DNA of 58,892 bases from positions 1 through 58,892 of IMG/VR virus record IMGVR_UViG_3300007516_000020, one strand, 5' to 3'. The notes beneath the pieces are model-generated. The model saw nothing but the letters and a program-made list of their open reading frames with translations. It was not told the DNA's origin and did not search any database. Of the stretch, positions 5,391 to 19,728 are shown piece by piece (positions within the stretch are counted from its first letter, which is position 1; the number at the start of each line of letters is the position of its first letter). The translations under genes were made by a program, and so were the position numbers. Source of the DNA: a virus. Taxonomy: Duplodnaviria > Caudoviricetes.

Positions 5391-5416
5391 GTTCGTCTTT
5401 ATTATGGGGTGATGTG

Positions 5417-5974
5417 ATGTTGCCAGAATTTGAGTCATTCAAGAAAATTCCCAGGCTCAGCCGTGTGTGTACCGTCACAGAAAAGCTGGACGGTACCAAC
5501 GGTCAGATCCTTATCACTGAGGATGGACTGTTATACGCTGGCAGCCATCGCCGCTGGCTCTTGACCCCCGAAGGGTTGGGTGAAGATAACCATGGATTCG
5601 GTCGCTGGGTGCTTGAGCACAAGGACGAACTCCTCCTAGGCCTGGGTATCGGTCGACACTACGGAGAGTGGTGGGGACAAGGTATACAGCGAAAGTATGG
5701 TTTGACTGAGAAACGATTCTCATTGTTCAATACGCATATGTGGGGCGACGAGACTGTCAGACCTGCTTGTTGCTCTGTGGTGCCTGTGTTGTACAAAGGA
5801 ATGTTCGATCAGATCATCATACAGGATTGCCTGAATGGTTTGGGGAAAAATGGAAGTGTGGCCTCCCCAGGATTCATGAAACCAGAGGGTGTTGTGATTT
5901 ACCACGAAGCGGCAAAGACATATTTCAAGAAGACTATCGAAGGGGACGAGAAACCCAAAGGGTCGCAAGAATGA
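5417..5974 (+). CDS. Rnl2-like ATP-dependent RNA ligase (adenylation domain)
   Basis: FxKIPRL, TEKLDGTN (motif I), YGEWWG, EGVVI. Confidence 0.8.
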   Translation: MLPEFESFKKIPRLSRVCTVTEKLDGTNGQILITEDGLLYAGSHRRWLLTPEGLGEDNHGFGRWVLEHKDELLLGLGIGRHYGEWWGQGIQRKYGLTEKRFSLFNTHMWGDETVRPACCSVVPVLYKGMFDQIIIQDCLNGLGKNGSVASPGFMKPEGVVIYHEAAKTYFKKTIEGDEKPKGSQE

Positions 5975-7318: not shown

Positions 7319-7392
7319 GGGGCCATCGTCCAATAGGAAGATAGCTGAATGGCATTCAGCAGACGAGGGGGCGGTACCCTCTGGCTCCACCA
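7319..7392 (+). tRNA. tRNA-Ala(GGC)
   Basis: cloverleaf, G3:U70, CCA; T-loop GGCGGTA. Confidence 0.85.
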
Positions 7393-7399
7393 CAAATAT

Positions 7400-7475
7400 G
7401 CGCTGGTACTCTAACTAGCAAGGGGCCCACCCGATAAGTGGGAATATGTGAGTGCAAATCTCACCCGGCGCACCA
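7400..7475 (+). tRNA. tRNA-Ile(GAT), C33
   Basis: cccac-cc GAT aa-gtggg; CCA. Confidence 0.85.
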
Positions 7476-7482
7476 AGCGTAT

Positions 7483-7556
7483 ATGGGATAAGTGTTACAG
7501 CAGCACAGTAGTCTCCAAAACTACGGGCGCAGGTGCGACTCCTGCATCCCATGCCA
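7483..7556 (+). tRNA. tRNA-Trp(CCA)
   Basis: gtagt-ct CCA aa-actac; G73 CCA. Confidence 0.9.
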
Positions 7557-7574
7557 AAAGAAGAGGAATGTATC

Positions 7575-8102
7575 ATGTTGTCAATGACTTTGTTACTCAA
7601 CACCACCTATGAACCTATCCAGGTCGTTGGTTGGCAGCGAGCGATTACCCTGTTGTTTCAGGGAAAGTGTGAAGTCCTTGAGGAACACGATGAAGAAATC
7701 CATTCGATTTCTTTCACGATGAAGATTCCTTCAGTACTCAGAATGTTGATGCCAGCAAGGATCAAGCGTAAGGTCCCAGTGAAGTTCACCAGGTTGAACA
7801 TCTTTACGCGAGACGGTTGGAAGTGTCAATACTGCGGCGACAAGTTTTCCAGCAATGAATTGACTTTCGACCATGTTGTTCCTGTGACTCAGGGTGGCCG
7901 TAAAAGTTGGGAAAACATCACGACCGCGTGCGTGGACTGTAACTCTCGGAAGGCTGGGCGTACTCCTCAGCAAGCAGGAATGAAGCTCTTGAAGAAGCCC
8001 AAGCAGCCTATGTGGTCACAAGTAATCACTGTTACCGCGGGGCTACGAAAGACCCCTGATAACTGGGCATCATACTTGTACTGGAATGTTGAGCTGACAT
8101 AA
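7575..8102 (+). CDS. HNH endonuclease (McrA-like)
   Basis: RDGWKCQYCG, TFDHVVP, WENITTACVDCNSRK. Confidence 0.9.
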   Translation: MLSMTLLLNTTYEPIQVVGWQRAITLLFQGKCEVLEEHDEEIHSISFTMKIPSVLRMLMPARIKRKVPVKFTRLNIFTRDGWKCQYCGDKFSSNELTFDHVVPVTQGGRKSWENITTACVDCNSRKAGRTPQQAGMKLLKKPKQPMWSQVITVTAGLRKTPDNWASYLYWNVELT

Positions 8103-8107
8103 ATCCT

Positions 8108-8197
8108 GTGGAGTGGTGTAAACACCAAGCACGATAAACGCAGAGGGGAAGACCCTCAAATGCGGGATAAGTAGGAGTCTAGAAATCTCCTCTCCAC
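8108..8197 (+). ncRNA. tRNA-like structured RNA without CCA
   Basis: gtggag/ctccac closing stem plus three hairpins. Confidence 0.45.
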
Positions 8198-8209
8198 TGA
8201 AAATAGTTC

Positions 8210-8238
8210 TTGACAAACGGTTCGGAATTTGTTATAGT
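8210..8238 (+). promoter_or_regulatory. sigma70-type promoter
   Basis: TTGACA-17-TATAGT. Confidence 0.7.
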
Positions 8239-8267
8239 AAGAGAGTGAGATAAGAAATTGAGAGTTT

Positions 8268-8343
8268 GCCGCTGTGAGTCAGATAGTTGATTGCCTCTCT
8301 TGTAAGGAGGATTAGGCTGGTGCAAGTCCAGTCAGCGGCTCCA
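8268..8343 (+). tRNA. tRNA-Thr(TGT)
   Basis: cctct-ct TGT aa-ggagg; CCA. Confidence 0.88.
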
Positions 8344-8560
8344 TTGTTGATAGGCAATCCAACGTAGTGTTGGATGGGACGCCAGGGAAAGTGCCACGTG
8401 CAACTCTTTCCCAGTCAGCGGCTCCATTGTTGATAGGCAATCCAACGTAGTGTTGGATGGGACGCCAGGGAAAGTGCCACGTGCAACTCTTTTCCGGTCA
8501 GCGGCTCCATTGTTGATAGGCAAACCAACGTAGTGTTGGATGGGACGCCAGGGAAAGTGC
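8331..8560 (+). repeat. 83-bp tandem repeat (about 2.8 copies) beginning with the tRNA-Thr 3' end
   Basis: gtcagcggctccattgttgatagg starts at 8331, 8414, 8497. Confidence 0.92.
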
Positions 8561-8653
8561 AACTCTTTCAGACCCTATCGAATAGCGCGGAAATGGGTGT
8601 AGCGCGATACAAATAGCCCGTACATTTTCCTCTTGAGAAACAGAGGATCGATT

Positions 8654-8728
8654 GTGATCGTAGCATAAGTAGTAATGCGCTAGTTTGTGGCACTAGTTAA
8701 GAGGGTGCAAGTCCCTTCGATCACCCCA
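8654..8728 (+). tRNA. tRNA-His(GTG)
   Basis: ctagt-tt GTG gc-actag; C73; -1 base is T. Confidence 0.88.
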
Positions 8729-8758
8729 TAGCCAATCATGACGATTGGCACGAAGCAT

Positions 8759-8808
8759 GATAGCATCCACCTGAGACGTGGACTGTGAGCAACAGGGAAA
8801 CTGCTATC
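8759..8808 (+). ncRNA. unidentified three-way-junction RNA with CTGAGAC loop
   Basis: gatagca/tgctatc, tccac/gtgga, ctgt/acag. Confidence 0.4.
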
Positions 8809-8815
8809 GATATAC

Positions 8816-8891
8816 GGGCCCTTAGCTCATTCAGGAGAGCGCCGCACTTGCAATGCGGAGGTGGTCGGAGCAAAGCCGACAGGGTCCACCA
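8816..8891 (+). tRNA. tRNA-Ala(TGC)
   Basis: ccgca-ct TGC aa-tgcgg; G3:U70. Confidence 0.9.
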
Positions 8892-8950
8892 TAAAGTCCT
8901 GGTAGGGATTTAGAAGGCAGAATATCGGGACCAGAATTTTGAGAAAATAT

Positions 8951-9025
8951 CTAGGTGTGGGTCAATGGCAGACCACTCGGTTTGGGGCCGAGACCATGCA
9001 GGTTCGAGTCCTGTCACCTAGACCA
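8951..9025 (+). tRNA. tRNA-Pro(TGG)
   Basis: ctcgg-tt TGG gg-ccgag; C1:G72. Confidence 0.92.
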
Positions 9026-9097
9026 CTAACTCGGCACAATCGCTATTGTGCGATGCCCCCACGGTTCGGTGGGGTTAGAGTGCCGGCACTAAAATAC

Positions 9098-9172
9098 GCT
9101 CCCATCGAATACTGGCTAGTTCATCTGGCTTTCAACCAGAAAAAGAGAGATCGATACTCTCTGGGAGCACCA
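9098..9172 (+). tRNA. tRNA-Glu(TTC)
   Basis: tctgg-ct TTC aa-ccaga. Confidence 0.88.
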
Positions 9173-9183
9173 TTAGAATAGAC

Positions 9184-9261
9184 GCCGGCGTGAAGGGAAT
9201 TGGTATACCTGTTTGGTCGAGAGCCAGACGCTTGTGGGTTCGACTCCCACCGACGGCACCA
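9184..9261 (+). tRNA. tRNA-Leu(GAG), short variable loop, C33
   Basis: tttgg-tc GAG ag-ccaga; Leu-type D-loop GGTATAC; A73; one acceptor mismatch. Confidence 0.7.
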
Positions 9262-9271
9262 AAAGAATTAT

Positions 9272-9347
9272 AGCGGGTGGATGGGGATAGTTCTCCTATT
9301 GGGCTCATAACCCGATGTCCGTAGTGCAATTCTACGACCCGCAACCA
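9272..9347 (+). tRNA. initiator tRNA-fMet(CAT)
   Basis: three G:C pairs in anticodon stem; 1:72 mismatch. Confidence 0.85.
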
Positions 9348-9355
9348 CATAGTAC

Positions 9356-9429
9356 TGCGGTAAGCACAAGCGTAGCAGAACGATTTCATAAGTCGTTTCT
9401 AGAGGGTGCGACTCCCTCTACCGCAACCA
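9356..9429 (+). tRNA. tRNA-Met(CAT) elongator (Ile2 not excluded)
   Basis: acgat-tt CAT aa-gtcgt; weak D-stem. Confidence 0.75.
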
Positions 9430-9436
9430 ACTTTGT

Positions 9437-9513
9437 GCGCCTGTAGCCCAACGGCAGGAGGCGACGGTCTTAGAAGCCGTACAGTACAGGTTCAAATCCT
9501 GTCAGGCGCACCA
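9437..9513 (+). tRNA. tRNA-Leu(TAG), short variable loop
   Basis: acggt-ct TAG aa-gccgt. Confidence 0.88.
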
Positions 9514-9525
9514 TAATAGAATTAT

Positions 9526-9600
9526 GGGTTGCAAGCTTTCAAAGTGAAGCTCCCGGCTTTTAACCGGAGGAACTCGGCGCGATACCGAGGCGACCCACCA
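9526..9600 (+). tRNA. tRNA-Lys(TTT)
   Basis: ccgg-ct TTT aa-ccgg; T-loop CGCGATA. Confidence 0.85.
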
Positions 9601-9673
9601 ACGAATTGCTCAGTGTACGAGTCAATGGAAGTTGTTTTGATGTCTTTGACTCAGATACGAAGCACGAATTTAG

Positions 9674-9740
9674 CGAGGCTCTACAATTACTGAGACACCG
9701 TAGAGCGTAAAGGGAAATGGAGTTAGTAATTTCCCCCTCG
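9674..9740 (+). ncRNA. unidentified junction RNA with CTGAGAC-containing loop
   Basis: cgag/ctcg, gctctac/gtagagc, gggaaat/atttccc. Confidence 0.4.
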
Positions 9741-9749
9741 TAAAGTCAC

Positions 9750-9839
9750 GCACCCGCGCCTTGATAGGCAGAGGGGCCTTATAAGCCCGTCGCTCTAGAT
9801 CAGAGCCTTGACTGGGTTTGATTCCCAGCGGGTGTACCA
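9750..9839 (+). tRNA. non-canonical long-variable-arm tRNA with UAU anticodon (allo-tRNA-like)
   Basis: gggc-ct TAT aa-gccc; V-arm gctct/agagc; 4-nt D-loop; folds as 7/5 or 8/4; CCA. Confidence 0.75.
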
Positions 9840-9859
9840 TACATATAAAGGGGATGCTC

Positions 9860-10072
9860 ATGAAGGTCAAGGACAGAAACTTAAAAGTTTTGGTCGATGT
9901 AGCCGAGAAAGGTTGTCAGGGGTTCAAGTGCTACTGGCCGCGCCCAGACCCAGGCGTCTTCACTCAAGGCTCTGGATATCGGTCCCGCGACCCATCTGGC
10001 AAAACCAAGCCCGGTTGGTTGTGCGGCACCCGAGAAATACGTGGTTGCCCGGACAATCCTGTACCACGATAG
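9860..10072 (+). CDS. small Cys-containing hypothetical protein
   Basis: AAGGGG RBS; part of ORF 9818..10072. Confidence 0.5.
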   Translation: MKVKDRNLKVLVDVAEKGCQGFKCYWPRPDPGVFTQGSGYRSRDPSGKTKPGWLCGTREIRGCPDNPVPR

Positions 10073-10145
10073 ATGACCCGAAACACAGGGATTCTGGTGT
10101 ACACAAGTGTACACATTAGAATTCTCTAATGTTGAAGAAAAGCCC

Positions 10146-10173
10146 TTGACTTATTTCCTCGTTATGCTATAAT
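10146..10173 (+). promoter_or_regulatory. sigma70-type promoter
   Basis: TTGACT-16-TATAAT with TGn. Confidence 0.7.
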
Positions 10174-10186
10174 TAGAGCATAGGGA

Positions 10187-10402
10187 ATGGAGAACAAGAT
10201 GACTGAGAACAAAAATAGGAACATCATCATTGCCCAGTTCACCAACCACGATGATGCAATGACCGCATTCGTTGTTGAGTCGTTTCTAGGTGGATACGGT
10301 GTCTCCCTTCGCGACGACGACTCCGGCGAGTTCGTCGGATTCGCGATCCACGGCATCAAGAGCTTAGGGACCGCGATTGCTAAGGCGAAGGAAGTGCTTT
10401 AA
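10187..10402 (+). CDS. hypothetical protein
   Basis: promoter upstream; start 10187 or 10199. Confidence 0.65.
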   Translation: MENKMTENKNRNIIIAQFTNHDDAMTAFVVESFLGGYGVSLRDDDSGEFVGFAIHGIKSLGTAIAKAKEVL

Positions 10403-10462
10403 ATAAGGCTTGTATTAGTGATAACGTAGTCTATAGTGTTTTCAACGCAAAGGAGACTTATA

Positions 10463-10738
10463 ATGGAAATGTCAGAGCATGAATTGGTGACGGTCTCGAC
10501 GCCTGGTGGGGACCTACATTATCGCCTGCACGATGGCGAGATTGTTCAACAATGGGTCGAGGGAGAGGGAGAGTGGGTGGATCAAACCAGTAGTGGGCCG
10601 AAAGATGAAGTGGCATTGACCCAACTCTCGGTGACTCCTGGCCATGTATTTTACGCGACGAGGTTCGGGGAACGGTGGCAGTGGGTTCAGACGACAGAAC
10701 AGTGGATGATGGTCACCGGCAAACATATTTCGGCGTGA
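10463..10738 (+). CDS. hypothetical protein
   Basis: AAGGAG RBS. Confidence 0.65.
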   Translation: MEMSEHELVTVSTPGGDLHYRLHDGEIVQQWVEGEGEWVDQTSSGPKDEVALTQLSVTPGHVFYATRFGERWQWVQTTEQWMMVTGKHISA

Positions 10739-10752
10739 AGAGACTCAATAAC

Positions 10753-10836
10753 GGAGGTATAGTCTCGTACGGCGCGAGGGCTGGCTGTAAACCAGTTGTT
10801 AATACCCAGAGGGTTCGATTCCTTCTACCTCCACCA
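10753..10836 (+). tRNA. tRNA-Tyr(GTA)
   Basis: gctgg-ct GTA aa-ccagt. Confidence 0.88.
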
Positions 10837-10845
10837 TAATGCCAA

Positions 10846-10929
10846 TAGTCACTGTGAAGAGACTCAAGAGTAGTAGCATACCGCGGGGAAGGCATGGGGG
10901 AGGACCTGGTTCAATTCCAGGCATGACTA
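10846..10929 (+). ncRNA. tRNA-like RNA or pseudo-tRNA with intact T-arm, no CCA
   Basis: tagtca/tgacta closing stem; cctgg-ttcaatt-ccagg. Confidence 0.45.
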
Positions 10930-11060
10930 CATAAGATCAGATATCTTGTAGGCATATAAGATGTACAGCGTGTAGGCATACAAGCTGTGTGGCGTGTACA
11001 GCCGTGATCGGAGTAGTCATGGAGTATGATGGATTGTATACCCCTGTATTTTGGAGTCAG

Positions 11061-11204
11061 ATGAAAGTTTACAAGAAGAAGCGCCGAAGTTGCCCAATGT
11101 GCAAACCAAATAAGATGGGGATAGAGCCCTGTTGGACAGCGAAGGATCTTGATAGACTGAAGCGAATGGAAAAGGAAGCGAGAGAAATAAAGAGAACAGA
11201 TTAG
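11061..11204 (+). CDS. small basic protein with CxxC (RSCPMCKP)
   Basis: GGAG RBS; 3' part of ORF 10989..11204. Confidence 0.5.
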   Translation: MKVYKKKRRSCPMCKPNKMGIEPCWTAKDLDRLKRMEKEAREIKRTD

Positions 11205-11210
11205 AAATAT

Positions 11211-11286
11211 GCACTCGGAGCCTGTAGGATGGGCGCTTGATTGTCAATCAAGAATAAAGCGGGATCGTTACCCGTCGAGTGCGCCA
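11211..11286 (+). tRNA. tRNA-Asp(GTC)
   Basis: cttga-tt GTC aa-tcaag; G73. Confidence 0.85.
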
Positions 11287-11290
11287 TGAT

Positions 11291-11364
11291 GTCGATGTAG
11301 CCAAGGGGATTGGCACCGGTCTGCAAAACCGTTTACGTTGGTTCGATTCCAACCATCGACTCCA
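11291..11364 (+). tRNA. tRNA-Cys(GCA)
   Basis: cggt-ct GCA aa-accg; U73. Confidence 0.9.
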
Positions 11365-11372
11365 TACAATAC

Positions 11373-11447
11373 GCACTGCAAGCATTAGTGGTGATGCTTC
11401 CGGCTCTTAACCGGAAGAACCGAGTTCGACTCTCGGGCGGTGCACCA
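11373..11447 (+). tRNA. tRNA-Lys(CTT)
   Basis: tccgg-ct CTT aa-ccgga. Confidence 0.9.
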
Positions 11448-11450
11448 TAT

Positions 11451-11524
11451 AGGGATATCGTCTAATAGCAAGACAACAGGCTTTGAACCTGTGAACCTAG
11501 GGGCGGTACCTAGTATCCCTTCCA
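11451..11524 (+). tRNA. tRNA-Gln(TTG)
   Basis: acagg-ct TTG aa-cctgt; T-loop GGCGGTA. Confidence 0.85.
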
Positions 11525-11535
11525 TAGAGGTTATC

Positions 11536-12048
11536 ATGACAGTCTTTTTGACAGCGGATACACATTTCGGCCACGCGGGTATCTGTACATTCTTGAATGC
11601 AGATGGAACGAAAGTGCGACCCTGGACTGATGTTGCCGAGATGGATGAAGAGTTGGTCAAGCGGTGGAATGAAGTCGTAAAGCCAACAGACAAAGTGTAT
11701 CACCTGGGCGATGTGGTGATCAGCCGAAAGGCACTAGCGATCCTGGGTCGTTTGAATGGGGACAAGGTACTTATCAAGGGAAATCATGACATCTTCAAGG
11801 TGTCTGACTATCTGAAGTATTTTCGTGATATCCGTAGTTACCATGTGACGGATAAGCTGATTTTATCGCATATCCCTATTCACCCCGATAGCAAAGGTCG
11901 CTTTCGTGGAAATGTTCATGGACACTTGCATGGGCGAGCATTAGAGGATACGTGGTATCAGTGTGTATGTGTTGAGCATACAGATTATCGACCAATTGCT
12001 TTTGAGGAGATTCAAAGAAGGACTAACAAAGGAATTATTGCGGATTAG
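11536..12048 (+). CDS. calcineurin-like metallophosphoesterase
   Basis: DTHFGH, HLGDV, KGNHD, SHIP, HGHLH; stop lies inside next tRNA. Confidence 0.9.
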   Translation: MTVFLTADTHFGHAGICTFLNADGTKVRPWTDVAEMDEELVKRWNEVVKPTDKVYHLGDVVISRKALAILGRLNGDKVLIKGNHDIFKVSDYLKYFRDIRSYHVTDKLILSHIPIHPDSKGRFRGNVHGHLHGRALEDTWYQCVCVEHTDYRPIAFEEIQRRTNKGIIAD

Positions 12049-12112
12049 CCAAACGGCCAGGCAGTGGACTCTGAATCCACCTAACAAGGTTCGACTCCTT
12101 GATCCGCAACCA
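12039..12112 (+). tRNA. tRNA-Gln(CTG)
   Basis: gtgga-ct CTG aa-tccac; U1:A72. Confidence 0.9.
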
Positions 12113-12129
12113 AATATCGCAGAATGTAT

Positions 12130-12207
12130 TCCGGTCTAGCATTCAGGGTGAGTGCGCTCCGCTGTTAACGGAGAACGAGCCAGGTTCGATCCCTGGGACC
12201 GGAGCCA
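12130..12207 (+). tRNA. tRNA-Asn(GTT)
   Basis: ctccg-ct GTT aa-cggag; G73. Confidence 0.9.
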
Positions 12208-12211
12208 ACAT

Positions 12212-12285
12212 GCTCCTATAGCACAATGGTAGTGCGACCGCCTGAAGAGCGGTACACCGAGGTTCGATTCCTCGTGGGAGCGCCA
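12212..12285 (+). tRNA. tRNA-Phe(GAA)
   Basis: accgc-ct GAA ga-gcggt. Confidence 0.88.
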
Positions 12286-12292
12286 AGAGAAT

Positions 12293-12367
12293 GCGGGTGT
12301 GGCAGAATGGTTTTGCACTTCCTTGCCAAGGAAGACTACGCGGGTTCGATCCCCGCCACCCGCTCCA
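12293..12367 (+). tRNA. tRNA-Gly(GCC)
   Basis: cttcc-tt GCC aa-ggaag; U73. Confidence 0.92.
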
Positions 12368-12544
12368 TTAGAGATCCAGGGCGTAGGAAAGTCGCCCCTC
12401 AAGAAACAATAGAGAAAATTCGACAAGGTGTTTTGAAATATAATGCGGGTTTGGTATAGAAGCTGTGCCTCAGCCTTCCAAGCTGAAGAGGCCGTTGCGA
12501 GTACGGCAACCCGCTCCATTAGAGATCCAGGGCGTAGGAAAGTC
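12358..12544 (+). repeat. 36-bp direct repeat (12358-12393 and 12509-12544): Gly 3' end, spacer, Pro 5' end
   Basis: acccgctccattagagatccagggcgtaggaaagtc twice. Confidence 0.9.
12445..12518 (+). tRNA. tRNA-Gly(TCC)
   Basis: tcagc-ct TCC aa-gctga; U73. Confidence 0.85.
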
Positions 12545-12605
12545 TGGTTGATCCTCTCCCCTCGGAAGGGAGAAATCGGTGGTTCAAATCCACCCGCCCT
12601 GACCA
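12528..12605 (+). tRNA. tRNA-Pro(CGG)
   Basis: ctccc-ct CGG aa-gggag; C1:G72; A37. Confidence 0.9.
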
Positions 12606-12634
12606 AAATGAGTGCTTGACATTGATATACTATT

Positions 12635-12709
12635 GCCCTGTAAGACTAGAAAGCGAGTTGCCTGTTTCGTAAGCAGGAGAGAACGATGCAAGTTCGTTAC
12701 GGGGCTCCA
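12635..12709 (+). tRNA. tRNA-Thr(CGT)
   Basis: cctgt-tt CGT aa-gcagg. Confidence 0.82.
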
Positions 12710-12715
12710 TTATAT

Positions 12716-12792
12716 GCTGGTGTAGACCAAGGGCAGAGTCACCAAACTTAAAATCTGGACAAGTGCAGGTTCGATTCCTGTCACCAGCACCA
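12716..12792 (+). tRNA. tRNA-Leu(TAA), short variable loop
   Basis: ccaaa-ct TAA aa-tctgg. Confidence 0.82.
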
Positions 12793-12796
12793 ATAC

Positions 12797-12873
12797 GCCG
12801 AAGTGATGCAACTGGCAGACATGGCTGATTCAAAACCAGTCTCTTGTGGGTTCGACTCCCACCTTCGGCACCA
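12797..12873 (+). tRNA. tRNA-Leu(CAA), short variable loop
   Basis: gctga-tt CAA aa-ccagt; GGCAGAC D-loop. Confidence 0.82.
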
Positions 12874-12918
12874 ATGCGTAGATTAGAGTAGGTTTTCTCC
12901 GCAAAATAGAAAGGAAAA

Positions 12919-13198
12919 TAGGACAACTAAACCATCACAAGTCTTACGACTTGAGGAACTTCGGGACACCAAGAACAGGACAGTGGCTAACGACCACCCA
13001 GAGTAATCTGAGGATTAGAGCCACAGTGACGATGCCGCGCAAGCGGAGTGAAACGAGCAATCTCTGTCCGGTGCAACTCCAAATAGGCTGGTGTGCTGTT
13101 CGCACAAGACCCAGCGGGTAGGAGGCTTGAGGGTATCAGTAATGATACTCCTAGAGAAATGATGGTTCACGACAGAATCCCGGGTATCGGTTGTCCTA
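12919..13198 (+). ncRNA. rnpB: RNase P RNA, compact bacterial type A
   Basis: P1 taggacaac/gttgtccta; P2 aaccatca/tgatggtt; GAGGAACTTCGGGA pairs with ACAGAATCCCGGGT (P4); GCCACAG; GTGAAACG; CAAATAGG; CGGGTAG; P6 gaaca/tgttc; P18. Confidence 0.92.
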
Positions 13199-13206
13199 CA
13201 ATTTAC

Positions 13207-13281
13207 GCCCTCAAAGAATAGATAGCGATTCGCCACCTTGGTAAGGTGGATAGACCGGCGCAAGTCCGGTTGAGGGCTCCA
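13207..13281 (+). tRNA. tRNA-Thr(GGT)
   Basis: ccacc-tt GGT aa-ggtgg. Confidence 0.87.
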
Positions 13282-13289
13282 TGAAATAC

Positions 13290-13364
13290 GCACCGCGAGC
13301 CGGTTGAATAGGCACCTGCCCTACAAGCAGATTCAAAGAGGTTTGATTCCTCTGCGGTGCACCA
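13290..13364 (+). tRNA. tRNA-Val(TAC), C33
   Basis: ctgc-cc TAC aa-gcag. Confidence 0.82.
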
Positions 13365-13441
13365 TGAGGTTGCAATGACACGCAACCAGACCGAAGTGTT
13401 ACTAGAAGATATGTTTCAGTGCGCGGCCGTAAAGAAATAAT

Positions 13442-13518
13442 GTCCCTGTGGTCCAGATGGAAAAGACGCCTCCCTGCGAAGGAGGAGATCGGTGGTTCAA
13501 GTCCACCCAGGGACACCA
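13442..13518 (+). tRNA. tRNA-Arg(GCG)
   Basis: cctcc-ct GCG aa-ggagg; A20. Confidence 0.88.
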
Positions 13519-13643
13519 TAAGAAAGGAACGTGATTGGACGTTCCTATTTTGATCGGGGATCTATGTTTGCTTTTACATTGCTGTTCTTATATGAGTTTT
13601 TTCTGTTTAGGCAAGCAGCAAAGTACTACGGTATGAAATAGAG

Positions 13644-13731
13644 GGAAGATTGGCAGAGAGGCCTATTGCGCTGGTTTGCTAAACCATGCGGGGTAACACC
13701 CACGAAGGTTCGAATCCTTCATCTTCCGCCA
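13644..13731 (+). tRNA. tRNA-Ser(GCT)
   Basis: long V-arm, G73, tt GCT aa. Confidence 0.92.
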
Positions 13732-13737
13732 TGTTTT

Positions 13738-13825
13738 GGAAGGTTCACCGGACAGGCGCGCCGGGACCGTCTCGAAAGCGGATCGAGGGTAACACCTTGG
13801 GGATCAAGACCTCAGCCTTCCGCCA
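13738..13825 (+). tRNA. tRNA-Ser(CGA)
   Basis: long V-arm, G73, ct CGA aa. Confidence 0.85.
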
Positions 13826-13842
13826 TTGTTATGAAAGGATAT

Positions 13843-14196
13843 ATGTCTCTTTTTGATGTTCTTGGTAATCCTAATAAGACTCCTGTCATATCCGCGGCCG
13901 TGGAATTGTACGCTGAGAGGTTGGAGGAACAAAATCATCGAGTGAAGATATTCGACACACCAAAGGGATTGTGTATGTCGTGTTACATGTCGCACATTTA
14001 TCGGTCACCGAAACTCGAAGGTGGGAACTGGCATATCACTTGTACGGTTCCCAAAGGACCATCACTCATTATGCCCGACGATATCTCTTACTGCAATCGC
14101 TTCGAGAAGAAGGGTGAACAGACACTTGATGATATGAAGCGGGTAGCAAGACTCATTGAAAAAGAAGATGGGAAAAAGGTTGGATTCACGGCATAA
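13843..14196 (+). CDS. hypothetical protein with CxxC (possible Zn-binding)
   Basis: AAGGA RBS; 3' part of ORF 13666..14196. Confidence 0.65.
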   Translation: MSLFDVLGNPNKTPVISAAVELYAERLEEQNHRVKIFDTPKGLCMSCYMSHIYRSPKLEGGNWHITCTVPKGPSLIMPDDISYCNRFEKKGEQTLDDMKRVARLIEKEDGKKVGFTA

Positions 14197-14199
14197 TAT

Positions 14200-14287
14200 G
14201 GAAGAGTGACCGAGAGGCTAATGGTGCTCGCTTGGAAAGCGATGCGGTGTAACAGCCACGCAGGTTCAAATCCTGTCTCTTCCGCCA
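14200..14287 (+). tRNA. tRNA-Ser(GGA)
   Basis: long V-arm, G73, tt GGA aa. Confidence 0.92.
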
Positions 14288-14297
14288 TAATTAGTGC

Positions 14298-14326
14298 TTG
14301 ACATTCTTAGTCAGTTTGTGTATAAT
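14298..14326 (+). promoter_or_regulatory. consensus sigma70 promoter abutting tRNA-Ser(TGA)
   Basis: TTGACA-17-TATAAT. Confidence 0.7.
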
Positions 14327-14327
14327 T

Positions 14328-14417
14328 GGAAGTGTAATCAGGCGAGCGTACTGGGACCGCCTTGAAAGCGGATCGGCGGTGAAAGCCGTTGGGGTGCAAG
14401 TCCTCACACTTCCGCCA
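14328..14417 (+). tRNA. tRNA-Ser(TGA)
   Basis: long V-arm, G73, ct TGA aa. Confidence 0.87.
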
Positions 14418-14750
14418 TTTTATATGAAGGATGTGTTGTGTCTAATCTATTGTGGCTAGCCCTGGGTCTGTTGGTATGGTGTAAGAGGAAACCCATGTTG
14501 AAATTGAAATTTGAATTGTCCGATGAGGACTGGAAAAAGGTTAATCGGTTCATACGAAAACAGGACAAGCTCACTGGCACCGGCGCAAATTATGGAGCGA
14601 TTGGTGGAGGTTATACCTACCAATTTACACCTACCTCGTTGGGGGTCATAGTCAAAGTTGAGAATTGTGTGACAAAGGCATCCATCAATCTGACAGATTT
14701 TGATAGCTGGTAACAGCGTTGGGGTGCAAGTCCTCACACTTCCGCCATTT
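14387..14750 (+). repeat. 34-bp direct repeat of tRNA-Ser 3' end (14387-14420, 14717-14750) flanking one ORF
   Basis: cgttggggtgcaagtcctcacacttccgccattt twice. Confidence 0.92.
14495..14713 (+). CDS. conserved phage hypothetical protein (GAIGGGYTYQFTPTSLG)
   Basis: GAGG RBS; motif common in phage ORFs. Confidence 0.7.
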   Translation: MLKLKFELSDEDWKKVNRFIRKQDKLTGTGANYGAIGGGYTYQFTPTSLGVIVKVENCVTKASINLTDFDSW

Positions 14751-14811
14751 GGATAATTATGGAAGTTGTAGTCACATCGGGGTTGTGGTTTGAGAGATAG
14801 AATCATAATTT

Positions 14812-15155
14812 GGGGGTGAATTAGGTATCGACAGAGGCGTATAGAGAAGAACGGACATGCCGTGGACCAGGACCACGTAAATACTTGGAAAAACCAGAAA
14901 TGCCGAACAAGAGTTTGCATTAGCGGCATAAACGCCGCTCTCTGAAAGACCAAGAGGCTCCTGTAGGTCTGGAAGGGTCATTCATTGGAGGCACAGTGAT
15001 AAAGGCTAGCATGGTAGAGTGTTAGCTGAGTGTCAATCTACCACAGATCATATAAGGTGTCAGTCCCTTATGTGAGCGTTGTAAGACTGACTAGCATGGA
15101 ATATCCACTTTGACGTTGCTTTTGGACCCGGGTGCAACTCCCGGCACCTCCACCA
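14812..15155 (+). ncRNA. ssrA: tmRNA; tag reading frame 14902-14931 encodes AEQEFALAA*
   Basis: GGGGGTG/CACCTCC-ACCA with G3:U; 5' GGTATCGAC; 3' GGACCCGGGTGCAACTCCCGG; ALAA-ending tag. Confidence 0.95.
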
Positions 15156-15238
15156 ATTCATTCGCTCGACTGCCATGTGTAGGAAATGGGCATACGAGAG
15201 GGACCCTCAAGACTTCAGATTGGGGTCCCAGCTTTTAC

Positions 15239-15312
15239 GCTCCCATAGATTATTAGTAGATCGCTGGATTCTCAATCCAGAGAGCCGGGGGCAGTACCCG
15301 GTGGGAGCACCA
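15239..15312 (+). tRNA. tRNA-Glu(CTC)
   Basis: ctgga-tt CTC aa-tccag. Confidence 0.87.
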
Positions 15313-15318
15313 AAATAT

Positions 15319-15394
15319 GTCCCTGTGGGCCAACTGAAAGGTCACCCGCCTTCTAAGCGGGATTATGCGAGTTTGAGTCTCGCCGGGGACACCA
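15319..15394 (+). tRNA. tRNA-Arg(TCT)
   Basis: cccgc-ct TCT aa-gcggg. Confidence 0.87.
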
Positions 15395-15463
15395 AAGTAT
15401 ATTATGAGATTGACAGAAATCAAGCGCGAATTCAGAGGTTCAAACTGGAATGAAAGAATAAAC

Positions 15464-15538
15464 GCCGCTGTAGCCTAGTGTACAGGCACCTGCCTCCTAA
15501 GCGGGATAACGTGGGTTAGATTCCCACCAGTGGCACCA
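15464..15538 (+). tRNA. tRNA-Arg(CCT)
   Basis: cctgc-ct CCT aa-gcggg. Confidence 0.87.
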
Positions 15539-15544
15539 CATAAC

Positions 15545-15622
15545 CTCCCTGTGATGGCAATTGGACGCCGACCGCGCTTCGAACGCGGGATTATGTAGGT
15601 TCGAATCCTATCAGGGAGACCA
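15545..15622 (+). tRNA. tRNA-Arg(TCG)
   Basis: ccgcg-ct TCG aa-cgcgg. Confidence 0.85.
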
Positions 15623-15626
15623 TTAC

Positions 15627-15700
15627 AGACCCTTAGTACATTAGCAGTATCCCGCCCCGACACGGCGGAGAGGACAGGGCAGAACTGTCAGGGTCTACCA
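15627..15700 (+). tRNA. tRNA-Val(GAC), C33
   Basis: ccgcc-cc GAC ac-ggcgg. Confidence 0.82.
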
Positions 15701-15703
15701 TAT

Positions 15704-15780
15704 CGGACCGTAAACTTTAACTAGATGAGTGCCTGGCTTAAGCCAGGAAAACGAGGCGCGCTTCCTCGGCGGTCCGGCCA
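15704..15780 (+). tRNA. aberrant tRNA: 8-bp acceptor stem, 6-nt anticodon loop CTTAAG, CCA end
   Basis: cggaccgt/gcggtccg-G-CCA; cctgg/ccagg; cgagg/cctcg. Confidence 0.6.
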
Positions 15781-15781
15781 A

Positions 15782-16396
15782 TCAATTCGCCAGTTTCGTG
15801 ATACTGAGTGCCACAGATCGTAGTGCAGGTCCACCAGCCAATGTTGTCGCCGCCCGTAACCCCGTTGACCCCGAGGTATTGTTAATTGCCTGAACCAACT
15901 CAATATAGTCATTGGCATTTAACCGTGTCGTGGCGCGCAATGTCATAGGGTACCCCAAGGTTGGTTTGGTAATTGTGGTGCGCGTTGCGGTGCCAATAAT
16001 ATTCACATTATTTTTCCGTAACCAACAGTCGGCAAAGCGTCCGTTCCCCCCGCCACCTGTGCGTAGGTAATTCCCTGTTGCAACAATATGATACCATCCA
16101 TTTGAGAGTACTGAGACACGAGAATTGGCGAGAGCATGGGCTGCACCAATCAAGAGGTCATTGGAATTGAATGTGACGATATACGCAGAAGTATTGGTGG
16201 GCACCTGATCGATGGTGCTAGACACTTGTGCTGTTGAGAGGGCGAACAACGAGGCACCGTTTGCTAAGATGACCACGGCGCCATTGGCATGTTTACAATA
16301 GAGGAGTTGGTCGCCAGCGTTGAGTGCAAGCTCCCCGTTCGCTAACACGACTGGTGTATTTCCAGGATTTGTAGAGTGTTTGACTTTAACGATCAT
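15782..16396 (-). CDS. virion-associated protein: LANGELA N-terminus plus C1q/TNF-like beta C-terminus
   Basis: N-terminus paralogous to next gene; GWYHIVA...LNANDYIEL. Confidence 0.65.
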   Translation of the reverse strand: MIVKVKHSTNPGNTPVVLANGELALNAGDQLLYCKHANGAVVILANGASLFALSTAQVSSTIDQVPTNTSAYIVTFNSNDLLIGAAHALANSRVSVLSNGWYHIVATGNYLRTGGGGNGRFADCWLRKNNVNIIGTATRTTITKPTLGYPMTLRATTRLNANDYIELVQAINNTSGSTGLRAATTLAGGPALRSVALSITKLAN

Positions 16397-17221: not shown

Positions 17222-17250
17222 TTGACAACGTGCCTAGACTCTGTTATACT
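17222..17250 (+). promoter_or_regulatory. sigma70-type promoter
   Basis: TTGACA-17-TATACT with TGn. Confidence 0.75.
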
Positions 17251-17256
17251 TATAAC

Positions 17257-18195
17257 ATGATGAGAACACACATAGTGAATATGGTTTTCGGTTCCCACCT
17301 CTACGGCACGTCAAGCCCTTTGTCCGATAAGGACTACAAGGGCGTCTTTGTGCCTACCACCGACGAAATGCTATTGGGAAGATTCCCTAAGTCTATCAAT
17401 GAGTCCACGAAACTAAACTCAGGCGAAAAGAACACCGCCGCTGACACAGATAAGGAAACGTATTCCCTTCACTACTTCTTGGAATTGGCCAGGAAGGGTG
17501 AGACTGTGGCACTTGATATGCTTCATGCTCCAAAATCAGCGTGGGTGTCGCATAGCTGGCATTGGGAATATCTTGTTGCCAACAGACAAAAATTCTACAC
17601 CAAAAACCTTTCATCCTTGGTTGGTTATGCGCGGAAGCAATCGGCAAAGTATGGGGTGAAGGGAAGTAGACTTGCGGAAGCTAAGACTGTGTTGTCGCTT
17701 CTTGAAGCTACATTCTCAGGGGTCAAGGTGTCTGATATTGTGACACTTCTTCCTGTGGGTGAGCATTGTGGTATGATGACTGGGAATGGGGTCACGTTCT
17801 ATCAAGTGTGTGGAAAGAAATTGACTCTCAATGCCCTTGCTTCTCACTATGTCCCTATGATGGAAAAGTTTGTCAAGGAATATGGGGATCGGGCGAAGCA
17901 AGCAGAGGCGAACATGGGTGTGGACTGGAAAGCTGTGAGCCATGCTTTTCGTGCCGCCTATCAAGTTCGTGCGATCTTGCGAGATGGGGATTTCACCTAT
18001 CCATTATCTGAGACTGAGTTTATTCGTGCGGTGAAGTCGGGTACGCTGAACTTCAAGACTGAAGTGGGACCTAAGCTTGATGAACTGATGGATGAAGTTG
18101 AAAAACTATCCTCAGAATCAACTCTTCCCGAAGAAGTGAGTGGTGAGTTTGTTGATGCGGTGCTGTTGCACCTTGTAAAGAATACGGAGTTATAA
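17257..18195 (+). CDS. Pol-beta-superfamily nucleotidyltransferase (RlaP / T4 NrdC.11-like)
   Basis: FGSHLYGTSSPLSDKDYKG; DWKAVSHAFR. Confidence 0.8.
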   Translation: MMRTHIVNMVFGSHLYGTSSPLSDKDYKGVFVPTTDEMLLGRFPKSINESTKLNSGEKNTAADTDKETYSLHYFLELARKGETVALDMLHAPKSAWVSHSWHWEYLVANRQKFYTKNLSSLVGYARKQSAKYGVKGSRLAEAKTVLSLLEATFSGVKVSDIVTLLPVGEHCGMMTGNGVTFYQVCGKKLTLNALASHYVPMMEKFVKEYGDRAKQAEANMGVDWKAVSHAFRAAYQVRAILRDGDFTYPLSETEFIRAVKSGTLNFKTEVGPKLDELMDEVEKLSSESTLPEEVSGEFVDAVLLHLVKNTEL

Positions 18196-19526: not shown

Positions 19527-19728
19527 AAGTTACTTCCCCATTCCCTTTGACCGATGGTATACCGAGAATCTGCCTGATATTCGTCGTGAGTTTAGCAAAG
19601 ATGGTCTGGATAAATTGAGGAATAGTCCAGAAAAGTTTGCTGCCTTGTTATACACTCTCAGGGTGGAGCACGATCAGAAGCGATGGACCAATTACTTGCA
19701 GTTTGTTGAGGATAATTATGTCGTATAA
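19516..19728 (+). CDS. hypothetical protein
   Basis: overlapping operon spacing. Confidence 0.55.
   Translation: MLTKSYFPIPFDRWYTENLPDIRREFSKDGLDKLRNSPEKFAALLYTLRVEHDQKRWTNYLQFVEDNYVV

Follow-up and report, generated by a model that had tools for sequence, protein, structure and literature searches.

The elbow of transfer RNA (tRNA) is the corner of its L-shape, where the D-loop and the T-loop interlock. In the canonical module, the T-loop reads U54-U55-C56-R57-A58 (R, purine; Y, pyrimidine; N, any nucleotide), G18 is located between positions 57 and 58 and bonded to U55, and G19 pairs with C56. As the G18-pseudouridine55 contact counts as an invariable part of tRNA, nature has provided almost no covariation to learn from. 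The available parts of two reviews treat G18, G19, U54, U55 and C56 as conserved (PMC4810234, PMC7566577). In the available part of a yeast SUP4oc screen, single changes at G18-U55, G19-C56, U54-A58 and U8-A14 abolished suppressor function, and slippage of the D-loop register could rescue it (PMC4117946). T-loops also occur outside tRNA. According to the available part of a study on flavin mononucleotide (FMN) and cobalamin riboswitches, 88.7% of them read UGNRA and 10.9% CGNRA, the base intercalating between loop positions 4 and 5 is almost exclusively A and is hydrogen-bonded twice with the sugar edge of the G at position 2, a ribosomal RNA (rRNA) form GGAAG exists, and tRNA-type UUCRA loops performed worse in a riboswitch screen (bioRxiv 10.1101/2022.12.26.521914). 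Here, a tRNA array is described from a 58,892-base window (the whole stretch of DNA analyzed, i.e., the virus record IMGVR_UViG_3300007516_000020), in which G18 and U55 are replaced together by A18 and G55 in 16 of 40 tRNAs.

The window is one virus record with T4-like baseplate and tail genes and a gene for an RtcB ligase. A dense array of RNA genes occupies positions 7319-15786 on the + strand and comprises 40 tRNAs in 8.5 kilobases (kb), a ribonuclease P (RNase P) RNA, a transfer-messenger RNA (tmRNA) and one decayed tRNA (Table 1). All 40 tRNAs end in an encoded CCA. A cloverleaf parse anchored on this CCA accommodated 38 of them; the rule was a 7-base-pair (bp) acceptor stem, a D arm, a 5-bp anticodon stem with a 7-nucleotide (nt) loop and a 5-bp T stem with a 7-nt loop. 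The remaining two, the second CAT tRNA and the TAT tRNA, have irregular D arms and are backed by folds and conserved orthologues. The second CAT tRNA scored 27.5 bits with Rfam and 40 bits with R1, and its orthologues are found in L004 and L006 (L numbers designate loci used for comparison).

Since the T stem fixes the register of the T-loop, positions 54-58 are unambiguous. By this register, 16 tRNAs carry G55, 20 carry U55-C56, and four carry U55 with a base other than C at position 56. The D-loop showed A-G in register in 16 of 16 G55 tRNAs and G-G in register in 20 of 20 U55-C56 tRNAs. At 18/55, A18/G55 was found 16 times and G18/U55 24 times, with no mixed state (16/0/0/24; Fisher exact p = 1.6e-11). 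The four tRNAs lacking C56 all carry a Watson-Crick partner at position 19, i.e., D-loop G-A with T56 in Val-TAC and Arg-TCT, and G-T with A56 in Arg-CCT. The fourth, the TAT tRNA, parses two ways. Its register was fixed by its orthologues, since those with G-A have U56 (window, L001) and those with G-G have C56 (L004, L006, L007 and others). All six conserved elbow nucleotides (G18, G19, U54, U55, C56 and A58) were present in only 17 of the 40 tRNAs, namely the 20 U55-C56 tRNAs minus three with A54 (Glu-TTC, Asp and Ser-CGA).

Within the G55 set of the window, T-loop position 2 is G and position 4 a purine throughout (16/16), and the 54:58 pair is U:A in nine tRNAs, G:G in four, C:A in two and A:A in one. 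For Ala, Thr, Ile-GAT, Trp, His and both CAT tRNAs, the G55 copies are the sole copies in the array, and both Ala tRNAs retain the identity mark G3:U70. Five isoacceptor pairs have similar backbones in opposite states (Ser-CGA/TGA, Lys-CTT/TTT, Gly-GCC/TCC, Glu-TTC/CTC and Gln-CTG/TTG). In the Ser pair, whose members are paralogues of 73-79% identity with one and the same T stem, A-G of Ser-TGA stands in register with G-G of Ser-CGA.

The original prediction, made from the letters of the window, had counted 16 of 40 tRNAs plus the tmRNA with a G55 T-loop, and this count matched the independent table of 40 tRNAs exactly. It had further stated that the G55 tRNAs carry A-G in the D-loop, that U55-C56 tRNAs keep G-G, and that the 19:56 pair covaries in Val-TAC, Arg-TCT, Arg-CCT and the TAT tRNA. 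The first two statements were borne out without exception, including every example quoted (Ile, Trp, Thr, His and Glu-CTC); so was the third, for the TAT tRNA by way of the orthologues. Its list of T-loop motifs was incomplete: the A54-G55, C54-G55-C56-A57 and G54-G55...A59-A60 forms are omitted, as are the three A54-U55 loops of Glu-TTC, Asp and Ser-CGA.

In a hypothesis-blind MAFFT alignment, A-G and G-G fell in the same two columns for most rows. A covariance model was built from this alignment, and the 150 best hits (143 unique) from the window and nine relatives were aligned with Infernal. In the Infernal alignment, the top mutual-information partner of column 55 among all columns was column 18 (0.76 bits; runner-up 0.24). 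When the D-loops of the G55 tRNAs were shuffled, only 15% of the trials yielded A-G in the register used. Thus, the 18/55 covariation is not an alignment effect. Structural alignment with mutual information at 18/55 had been named as the check on the predicted covariation; since the covariation survived both MAFFT and Infernal, the objection that a proper alignment removes it fails.

The comparison was extended to 119 related loci from viral contigs, which were fetched with two window proteins, the in-array phosphoesterase and RtcB. A scanner that scores stems only and ignores loop sequence (threshold 40) found 1349 tRNAs in these loci and the window, 1347 of them on the gene strand and 1315 with an encoded CCA; on the reverse strand of the window, nothing scored 30 or higher. 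A first tally contained 18 exception rows. Since these were mostly parse artefacts (long Tyr D-loops beyond the register limits and one-base frame shifts in hits without CCA), the register limit was widened and 34 hits without CCA were dropped in the final count. This left 1046 unique tRNAs, 1045 of them with an assignable register. A18:G55 was observed in 65 and G18:U55 in 976 tRNAs, A18:U55 and G18:G55 in none, and other combinations in four (p = 3.6e-105). The absence of intermediates fits the single-change losses reported in the available part of the yeast screen (PMC4117946). At 19:56, G:C was found in 1015 tRNAs, A:U in 20, U:A in eight and C:G in two, so that 30 of 30 tRNAs without C56 were Watson-Crick matched.

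Two further tertiary pairs were tallied in the family. In the first tally (1071 unique tRNAs), 54:58 was U:A in 935, A:U in 69, G:G in 29, A:A in 23 and C:A in eight tRNAs, and 8:14 was U:A in 895, A:U in 49, U:U in 41, G:G in 25 and A:A in 22. U54 was retained in 25 of 66 G55 tRNAs, compared to 894 of 978 U55 tRNAs. In the G55 set of the family, 54:58 was U:A in 25, G:G in 23, A:U in 11, C:A in four and A:A in three, and Y:A fits only about 40% of these.

Since relatedness of the sequences inflates p-values, contrasts were counted instead. G55 is spread over 24 of 48 anticodon families, and clustering at 80% identity gave 53 groups of G55 tRNAs. For 19 of these groups, a U55 relative sharing the anticodon and at least 75% identity was present, and all 19 pairs differed as A18 versus G18. 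The cleanest sister pair is tRNA-Asp of L065 and L033, with D- and T-loops differing only at 18 and 55. Among the nearest relatives of the window, the state varied from contig to contig and in both directions (Trp, Pro-TGG, Cys, Lys-CTT and Glu-CTC). Orthologues of Arg-TCT carry G:C (L004, L006, L113) or U:A (L095) at 19:56, and the L090 orthologue combines both swaps, with A18 and U19 facing G55 and A56. Descent of the G55 tRNAs of the window by duplication from one ancestor was rejected, as they did not cluster and resembled each other no more closely than G55 tRNAs resembled U55 tRNAs (0.427 versus 0.438; permutation p 0.70).

Taken from these sequence patterns, it is highly probable that the A18/G55 genes encode working tRNAs whose elbow is built from an alternative module of the same shape. 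Conservation and compensation suggest that the G55 tRNAs function. That the variants are functional and selected had been proposed beforehand; that they look functional and are under selection for pairing gained from the zero intermediates in 1045 tRNAs, from orthologues flipping both positions and from the sole copies of several tRNAs. Since the G55 loops read UGCRA, CGCRA, GGCRG or AGCRN and are matched by A in the D-loop, the swap may be read as an exchange of the tRNA-type T-loop module (UUCRA with intercalating G) for the general riboswitch type (YGNRA with intercalating A). The variant T-loop has the form N54-G55-C56-R57-N58, mostly UGCRA, CGCRA or GGCRG. A18 would take the intercalating place and presumably bond to the sugar edge of G55. 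The outer 19:56 pair remains Watson-Crick in all its combinations (G:C, A:U, U:A or C:G), and the 54:58 pair varies among U:A, A:U, G:G, A:A and C:A.

Other positions differed between the two classes in the family. Position 57 was a purine in all G55 tRNAs (A 58%, G 42%), with A57 in only 15% of canonical tRNAs. A60 was found in 55% of G55 tRNAs versus 10% of canonical ones, and exactly two nucleotides followed position 19 in 94% versus 51%. G53:C61 was retained in 92% of G55 tRNAs. The kept G53:C61 pair, the purine at 57, the mostly 2-nt stretch after 19 and the uneven distribution over amino acids described below would argue for selection for function. Two other pairing schemes were rejected. 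Watson-Crick inter-loop helices between D- and T-loops are known from engineered suppressor tRNAs; in the family, C18 was found in 0 of 65 G55 tRNAs and A18 in none of about 980 U55 tRNAs. Pairing of G55 with position 20 was discarded because position 20 was C or T in 69% of G55 tRNAs versus 83% of canonical tRNAs.

Chemically, a G at position 55 cannot be converted to pseudouridine, nor an A at position 18 to 2'-O-methylguanosine (Gm18). U54 is the site of 5-methyluridine (m5U). Since G55 and A18 are present and U54 is mostly lost, these tRNAs leave the regime of the host T-loop enzymes, and they presumably fold and function without them.

Several points weigh against the alternative-module reading. 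The register rule favours purines; this bias makes positions 18-19 look cleaner than they would under a neutral rule, but it cannot create the association with the T-loop. Both Ala tRNAs and the tmRNA read A-G-G, so that a slipped G-G is conceivable there; these loops remain ambiguous since the yeast screen showed register slippage. The U55 tmRNA of L090 has the same A-G-G as the G55 tmRNA of the window. Thus, of the swap predicted for the tmRNA, G55 stood and the change on the D side was not demonstrated. Four family tRNAs break the 18/55 rule (two G18:C55 and two T18:U55). As the sequences are related, the large p-values overstate independence, and the fair count is the 19 sister pairs. The A18-G55 contact is drawn by analogy from riboswitch T-loops rather than observed in a tRNA. 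Finally, in the available part of the yeast screen, G18A was rescued only by U20G and not by a change at 55, and the double mutant may be unsampled (PMC4117946). The observation of the matched A18/G55 swap is confirmed, its structural and evolutionary reading is well supported, and an adaptive reading can only be tentative.

The enrichment of the swap is lineage-specific. In the window together with L004/L098, L006/L097, L001, L095, L090, L113, L086, L089 and L094, 60 of 145 unique tRNAs (41%) are G55, each contig being at about 30-50%. The rest of the family has 0-2 G55 tRNAs per locus (about 1%). Seven unrelated cultured phages contained two G55 tRNAs among 149, both with D-loop A-G and with G at 54 and 58: one gene each in Streptomyces phage Coruscant (L126, Val-TAC) and Mesorhizobium phage Cp1R7A-A1 (L120, Pro-TGG). 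For the latter, no tRNA-Pro is annotated in the record stretch examined. Within the G55-rich clade, G55 was found in Ala (7/7), Val (13/15), Ile (4/4), His (3/3), Thr (9/11) and Lys (8/11), and for Leu in 0 of 12, as in 0 of 94 in the whole family; Arg holds most of the 19:56 swaps of the clade (10/19). Since orthologues are counted repeatedly, this uneven distribution is a lead rather than a test. It fits tRNA-specific partners limiting which tRNAs may switch; leucyl-tRNA synthetase (LeuRS) reads the tRNA core, according to the available part of PMC2377443.

Regarding the cause of the rise from about 1% to about 40%, we lean towards the view that, in this lineage, the advantage of the canonical module has weakened or turned around: either phage tRNAs have to fold unmodified by the host, or they avoid something that recognizes U54-U55. 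Near-neutral compensatory turnover is a possible account that can be held only tentatively. Both modules would be about equal in phage tRNAs, which have fewer partners than host tRNAs, and very large populations would frequently cross the two-step valley, genes switching to and fro with no adaptive purpose. Close relatives indeed differ in both directions in which of their tRNAs are G55, rich contigs sit at about 30-50% instead of being fixed, and the 8:14 and 54:58 pairs also wander among alternatives across the family. However, turnover of this kind does not by itself account for a G55 share of about 40% in one clade when the remainder of the family has about 1% and cultured phages have 2 of 149; something changed in this lineage. 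The distribution over amino acids is also strongly uneven.

Somewhat less likely is that the swap provides folding independent of modification, A18/G55 being stable as bare RNA and the canonical module relying on pseudouridine 55, m5U54 and Gm18. The corollary, which carries the same doubt, is that a phage flooding the cell with about 40 tRNAs would gain from elbows that need no host enzyme. In the available part of the riboswitch study, unmodified natural RNAs use YGNRA with A almost exclusively and UUCRA is weaker (bioRxiv 10.1101/2022.12.26.521914). The concurrent loss of U54 points the same way, and since CCA is encoded in nearly all genes of the family, these phage tRNAs need little host maturation. 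Nevertheless, sixty percent of the tRNAs of this phage keep the canonical module, and the riboswitch context differs from that of a tRNA.

The original prediction proposed evasion of elbow-reading host factors or modification needs. A factor from the host or a competitor that targets the canonical T-loop or elbow, such as a nuclease, a toxin or a modification enzyme acting as sensor, would favour tRNAs without U54-U55 or G18; this account appears unlikely. At least one bacterial toxin domain is reported to cut tRNA between 54 and 55. Genes for RNA repair (RNA ligase, RlaP, RtcB and phosphoesterase) lie around the array, and the enrichment of G55 is specific to the lineage; both facts fit relaxed constraint equally well. 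The flanking repair genes suggest that tRNA damage is part of the life of this phage and give no pointer to the elbow. Protection would be partial, as twenty canonical tRNAs, all four Leu tRNAs included, remain in the array; the switched set differs between close relatives, unlike a fixed target set.

Co-evolution with the RNase P RNA of the phage, by which a shortened RNase P of its own would release the phage tRNAs from what the host enzyme demands of the elbow, is quite improbable. The phage RNase P RNA lies inside the tRNA array and spans just 284 nt; where the model has 81 columns between J11/12 and the strand that closes P11, it has 23 nt, so that P13 and P14 are apparently deleted. Homologues were found only in four related contigs (L095, L004/L098, L113 and L006/L097), all of them rich in G55, and none was found in seven G55-poor loci or in five whole G55-poor records (two at least 92% complete). 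This association stems from one clade, however, and is effectively one event, and no RNase P RNA was found in the 89-kb record (53% complete) of the G55-rich L090. Moreover, the elbow-docking J11/12 strand is conserved in the alignment, and docking by stacking on the face of the 19:56 pair, as described in the available parts of PMC4810234 and PMC3664808, should not read position 55. In the literature searched, no report of a phage-encoded RNase P RNA was found.

Artefact or decay, by which the unusual genes would be pseudogenes, assembly errors or the outcome of a skewed alignment, is scarcely credible: although 10 of 40 escape default ARAGORN and Rfam at gathering scores and a neighbouring Lys-like copy is truly decayed, the genes have intact cloverleaves, an encoded CCA and conserved orthologues, compensation is perfect, the signal is kept in the blind MAFFT and the Infernal alignments, and three separate freshwater metagenome runs contain 70-95% of the words of the array. 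Among the sequencing runs listed for this DNA, none was of RNA.

A far wider interpretation is rather doubtful as a whole. It would hold that a lineage of freshwater phages is changing its own translation equipment, made up of about 40 tRNAs, the tmRNA and a minimal phage RNase P RNA, over to an elbow untouchable by host T-loop enzymes, escaping a factor keyed on U54-U55 or G18 and maturing via its own RNase P, and that this is a general 'orthogonal elbow' of mobile tRNA sets across phages and bacteria.

With default settings, ARAGORN found 27 tRNAs and the tmRNA in the window, and Rfam at gathering scores found 25 tRNAs, the tmRNA and the type-A RNase P RNA. Together, the two programs picked up 30 of the 40 tRNAs. 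All ten that escaped both have an unusual T-loop. Since standard tRNA finders miss 10 of 40 genes, phage tRNA repertoires are undercounted. When two array segments were compared by blastn with deposited phages, only tRNA-sized matches and no near relative were found; the best lead was Mesorhizobium phage Cp1R7A-A1, whose tRNAs are almost wholly canonical.

Table 1. Positions of the RNA genes of the array and of neighbouring protein genes in the window.
Feature	Position	Strand	Class	Elbow nucleotides and remarks
RNA ligase (PF09414)	5357-5974		RNA-repair set framing the array	
tRNA-Ala (GGC)	7319-7392	+	G55	A18 G19 (G20); G54 G55 C56 G57 G58; G3:U70
tRNA-Ile (GAT)	7400-7475	+	G55	A18 G19; T54 G55 C56 A57 A58; C33
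tRNA-Trp (CCA)	7483-7556	+	G55	A18 G19; T54 G55 C56 G57 A58; A8:T14; L004 orthologue G18/U55
HNH endonuclease	7533-8102		RNA-repair set, within the array	
tRNA-Thr (TGT)	8268-8343	+	G55	A18 G19; T54 G55 C56 A57 A58; missed by default ARAGORN and Rfam gathering
tRNA-His (GTG)	8654-8728	+	G55	A18 G19; T54 G55 C56 A57 A58
tRNA-Ala (TGC)	8816-8891	+	G55	A18 G19 (G20); A54 G55 C56 A57 A58; G3:U70
tRNA-Pro (TGG)	8951-9025	+	Canonical	G18 G19; T54 T55 C56; L006 orthologue (89-92% identical) A18/G55
tRNA-Glu (TTC)	9098-9172	+	A54 variant	G18 G19; A54 T55 C56 G57 A58
tRNA-Leu (GAG)	9184-9261	+	Canonical	G18 G19; T54 T55 C56; no long variable arm
Initiator-like tRNA (CAT)	9272-9347	+	G55	A-G in irregular D arm; T54 G55 C56 A57 A58
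Second CAT tRNA	9356-9429	+	G55	A-G in irregular D arm; T54 G55 C56 G57 A58
tRNA-Leu (TAG)	9437-9513	+	Canonical	G18 G19; T54 T55 C56; no long variable arm
tRNA-Lys (TTT)	9526-9600	+	G55	A18 G19; C54 G55 C56 G57 A58; A8:T14; missed by default tools
90-nt tRNA (TAT)	9750-9839	+	19:56 = A:U	G18 A19; T55 T56; long variable arm
tRNA-Tyr (GTA)	10753-10836	+	Canonical	D-loop G-G; T54 T55 C56
tRNA-Asp (GTC)	11211-11286	+	Swapped 54:58	G18 G19; A54 T55 C56 G57 T58; G8:G14
tRNA-Cys (GCA)	11291-11364	+	Canonical	G18 G19; T54 T55 C56; L006 orthologue A18/G55
tRNA-Lys (CTT)	11373-11447	+	Canonical	G18 G19; T54 T55 C56; A8:T14; L004, L001, L113 orthologues A18/G55
Metallophosphoesterase	11440-12048		RNA-repair set, inside the array	
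tRNA-Gln (TTG)	11451-11524	+	G55	A18 G19; G54 G55 C56 G57 G58
tRNA-Gln (CTG)	12039-12112	+	Canonical	G18 G19; T54 T55 C56
tRNA-Asn (GTT)	12130-12207	+	Canonical	G18 G19; T54 T55 C56
tRNA-Phe (GAA)	12212-12285	+	Canonical	G18 G19; T54 T55 C56; best Rfam score, 67.6 bits
tRNA-Gly (GCC)	12293-12367	+	Canonical	G18 G19; T54 T55 C56
tRNA-Gly (TCC)	12445-12518	+	G55	A18 G19; T54 G55 C56 G57 A58; T53:A61
tRNA-Pro (CGG)	12528-12605	+	Canonical	G18 G19; T54 T55 C56; L090 orthologue A18/G55
tRNA-Thr (CGT)	12635-12709	+	G55	A18 G19; T54 G55 C56 A57 A58; missed by default tools; L004 orthologue G18/U55
tRNA-Leu (TAA)	12716-12792	+	Canonical	G18 G19; T54 T55 C56; no long variable arm
tRNA-Leu (CAA)	12797-12873	+	Canonical	G18 G19; T54 T55 C56; no long variable arm
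RNase P RNA, bacterial type A	12919-13202	+		Shortened specificity domain; Rfam RF00010, 180.7 bits
tRNA-Thr (GGT)	13207-13281	+	G55	A18 G19; C54 G55 C56 A57 A58; missed by default tools; core identical in L090
tRNA-Val (TAC)	13290-13364	+	19:56 = A:U	G18 A19; T54 T55 T56; G8:G14; C33
tRNA-Arg (GCG)	13442-13518	+	Canonical	G18 G19; T55 C56; orthologues C19:G56 (L004), A19:U56 (L006, L113)
tRNA-Ser (GCT)	13644-13731	+	Canonical	G18 G19; T54 T55 C56
tRNA-Ser (CGA)	13738-13825	+	A54 variant	G18 G19; A54 T55 C56 A57 A58; paralogue of Ser-TGA
tRNA-Ser (GGA)	14200-14287	+	Canonical	G18 G19; T54 T55 C56
tRNA-Ser (TGA)	14328-14417	+	G55	T54 G55 C56 A57 A58; found only by the CCA-anchored parse
tmRNA	14812-15155	+	G55 T-loop	T54 G55 C56 A57 A58; ARAGORN; Rfam 119.3 bits
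tRNA-Glu (CTC)	15239-15312	+	G55	A18 G19; G54 G55 C56 A57 G58; L006 orthologue (91% identical) G18/U55
tRNA-Arg (TCT)	15319-15394	+	19:56 = A:U	G18 A19; T55 T56
tRNA-Arg (CCT)	15464-15538	+	19:56 = U:A	G18 T19; T55 A56; same in L090, L095; G:C in L113
tRNA-Arg (TCG)	15545-15622	+	Canonical	G18 G19; T54 T55 C56
tRNA-Val (GAC)	15627-15700	+	G55	A18 G19; G54 G55 C56 A57 G58; C33; missed by default tools
Decayed Lys-like pseudo-tRNA	15705-15786	+	Outside the 40	6-nt anticodon loop, C58, 3' end GCCA
RlaP nucleotidyltransferase	17230-18195		RNA-repair set framing the array	
ATP-dependent ligase	18197-19324		RNA-repair set framing the array	
RtcB	19637-20908		RNA-repair set framing the array	

Individual genes of the array showed further features (Table 1). 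The initiator-like CAT tRNA has a 1:72 mismatch, and three G:C pairs adjoin its anticodon loop. In the TAT tRNA, a single nucleotide separates the acceptor stem from the D stem, which has 3 bp and a 6-nt loop; this tRNA is conserved in at least nine related loci. At 8:14, the window also has swaps: Trp and the two Lys tRNAs carry A8:U14, and Asp and Val-TAC carry G8:G14. C33 replaces the near-universal U33 in Ile-GAT, Val-TAC and Val-GAC; in the family, it was found in 12 of 1053 unique tRNAs, mostly Ile and Val. With 77-78 nt, all four tRNA-Leu genes are without the long variable arm normally present in bacterial tRNA-Leu; long D-loops and canonical elbows are kept. The decayed Lys-like copy is homologous to the G55 Lys tRNAs of L095 and L001.

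The tmRNA encodes the tag peptide AEQEFALAA. The tmRNAs of related contigs carry G55 or U55, some with an 8-nt T-loop, and a betaproteobacterial-type tmRNA is present in L048 (11815-12194). An 83-nt tandem repeat (2.8 copies, 98% identity) is located at 8328-8560. Since its start lies within the 3' end of tRNA-Thr (TGT), the last ~13 bases of this tRNA, CCA included, recur at the end of every unit. Behind a small open reading frame, positions 14717-14750 repeat 34 nt from the 3' end of tRNA-Ser (TGA) without a mismatch, the pattern that would be left by a small element inserting into the tRNA gene and duplicating its end. In L033, a GOLLD RNA and a group I intron lie within the tRNA array (12990-13453, 15352-15554).

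With its dozens of independent matched switches, the phage family supplies a second, probably working elbow design for a contact otherwise treated as fixed, and reveals the parts that change together: 18 and 55, the short stretch after 19, and the freedom at 54:58. The finding ties tRNA to the general T-loop rule of riboswitches and predicts tRNAs without the 'universal' pseudouridine 55. The window adds a family data set with switches at the level of orthologues, series at 19:56 and 54:58, and the co-occurrence of the swap with a phage RNase P RNA and a G55 tmRNA. The two cultured phages with one A18/G55 gene each make the swap bench-testable. In the full-text literature searched, no description of an A18/G55 tRNA elbow was found; subscription journals and supplements lie outside this search, and an older account may exist.

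Compared with canonical tRNA (Rfam RF00005), the phage tRNAs are alike in the 7-bp acceptor stem, the 5-bp T stem with 7-nt loop, G53:C61, purine 57, G3:U70 in Ala and CCA. They differ in A18/G55 in 16 of 40, in 19:56 being A:U or U:A in four, and in position 54, which is often not U. With the T-loops of riboswitches and introns, as far as the available source describes them, they share G at position 2, a purine at position 4 and, presumably, an intercalating A. U:A or C:A at 1:5 occurs in part of them, and their G:G form has a precedent in an rRNA T-loop that bears G at 1 and 5. Unlike in riboswitches, position 3 in the phage tRNAs still pairs with D-loop position 19 in Watson-Crick fashion, and A54 forms occur, as read from the sequence alone.

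Bacterial L-arrays such as the Anabaena trn operon also comprise tens of tandem tRNA genes with an embedded HNH gene and a link to RtcB, according to the available part of PMC8421152. The window, with 40 tandem tRNAs, an HNH gene and the RtcB link, exceeds the L-array threshold of more than about 20 tRNAs. L-arrays lie on a bacterial chromosome or plasmid and are induced by translational stress. The array of the window belongs instead to a virus record, a contig that carries phage tail and baseplate genes, and it includes an RNase P RNA and a tmRNA. A word search of the main text of PMC8421152 returned none of the terms T-loop, G18, U55 and tertiary, and word searches of PMC7912444 and PMC8421152 returned no mention of G55 or A18. 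With the yeast SUP4oc map, in its available part, the phage family agrees in that single-change losses and rescue by slippage match the missing intermediates and the caveat on A-G-G loops (PMC4117946). Whereas no A18/G55 rescue is reported in that part of the map, the phage family supplies it many times.

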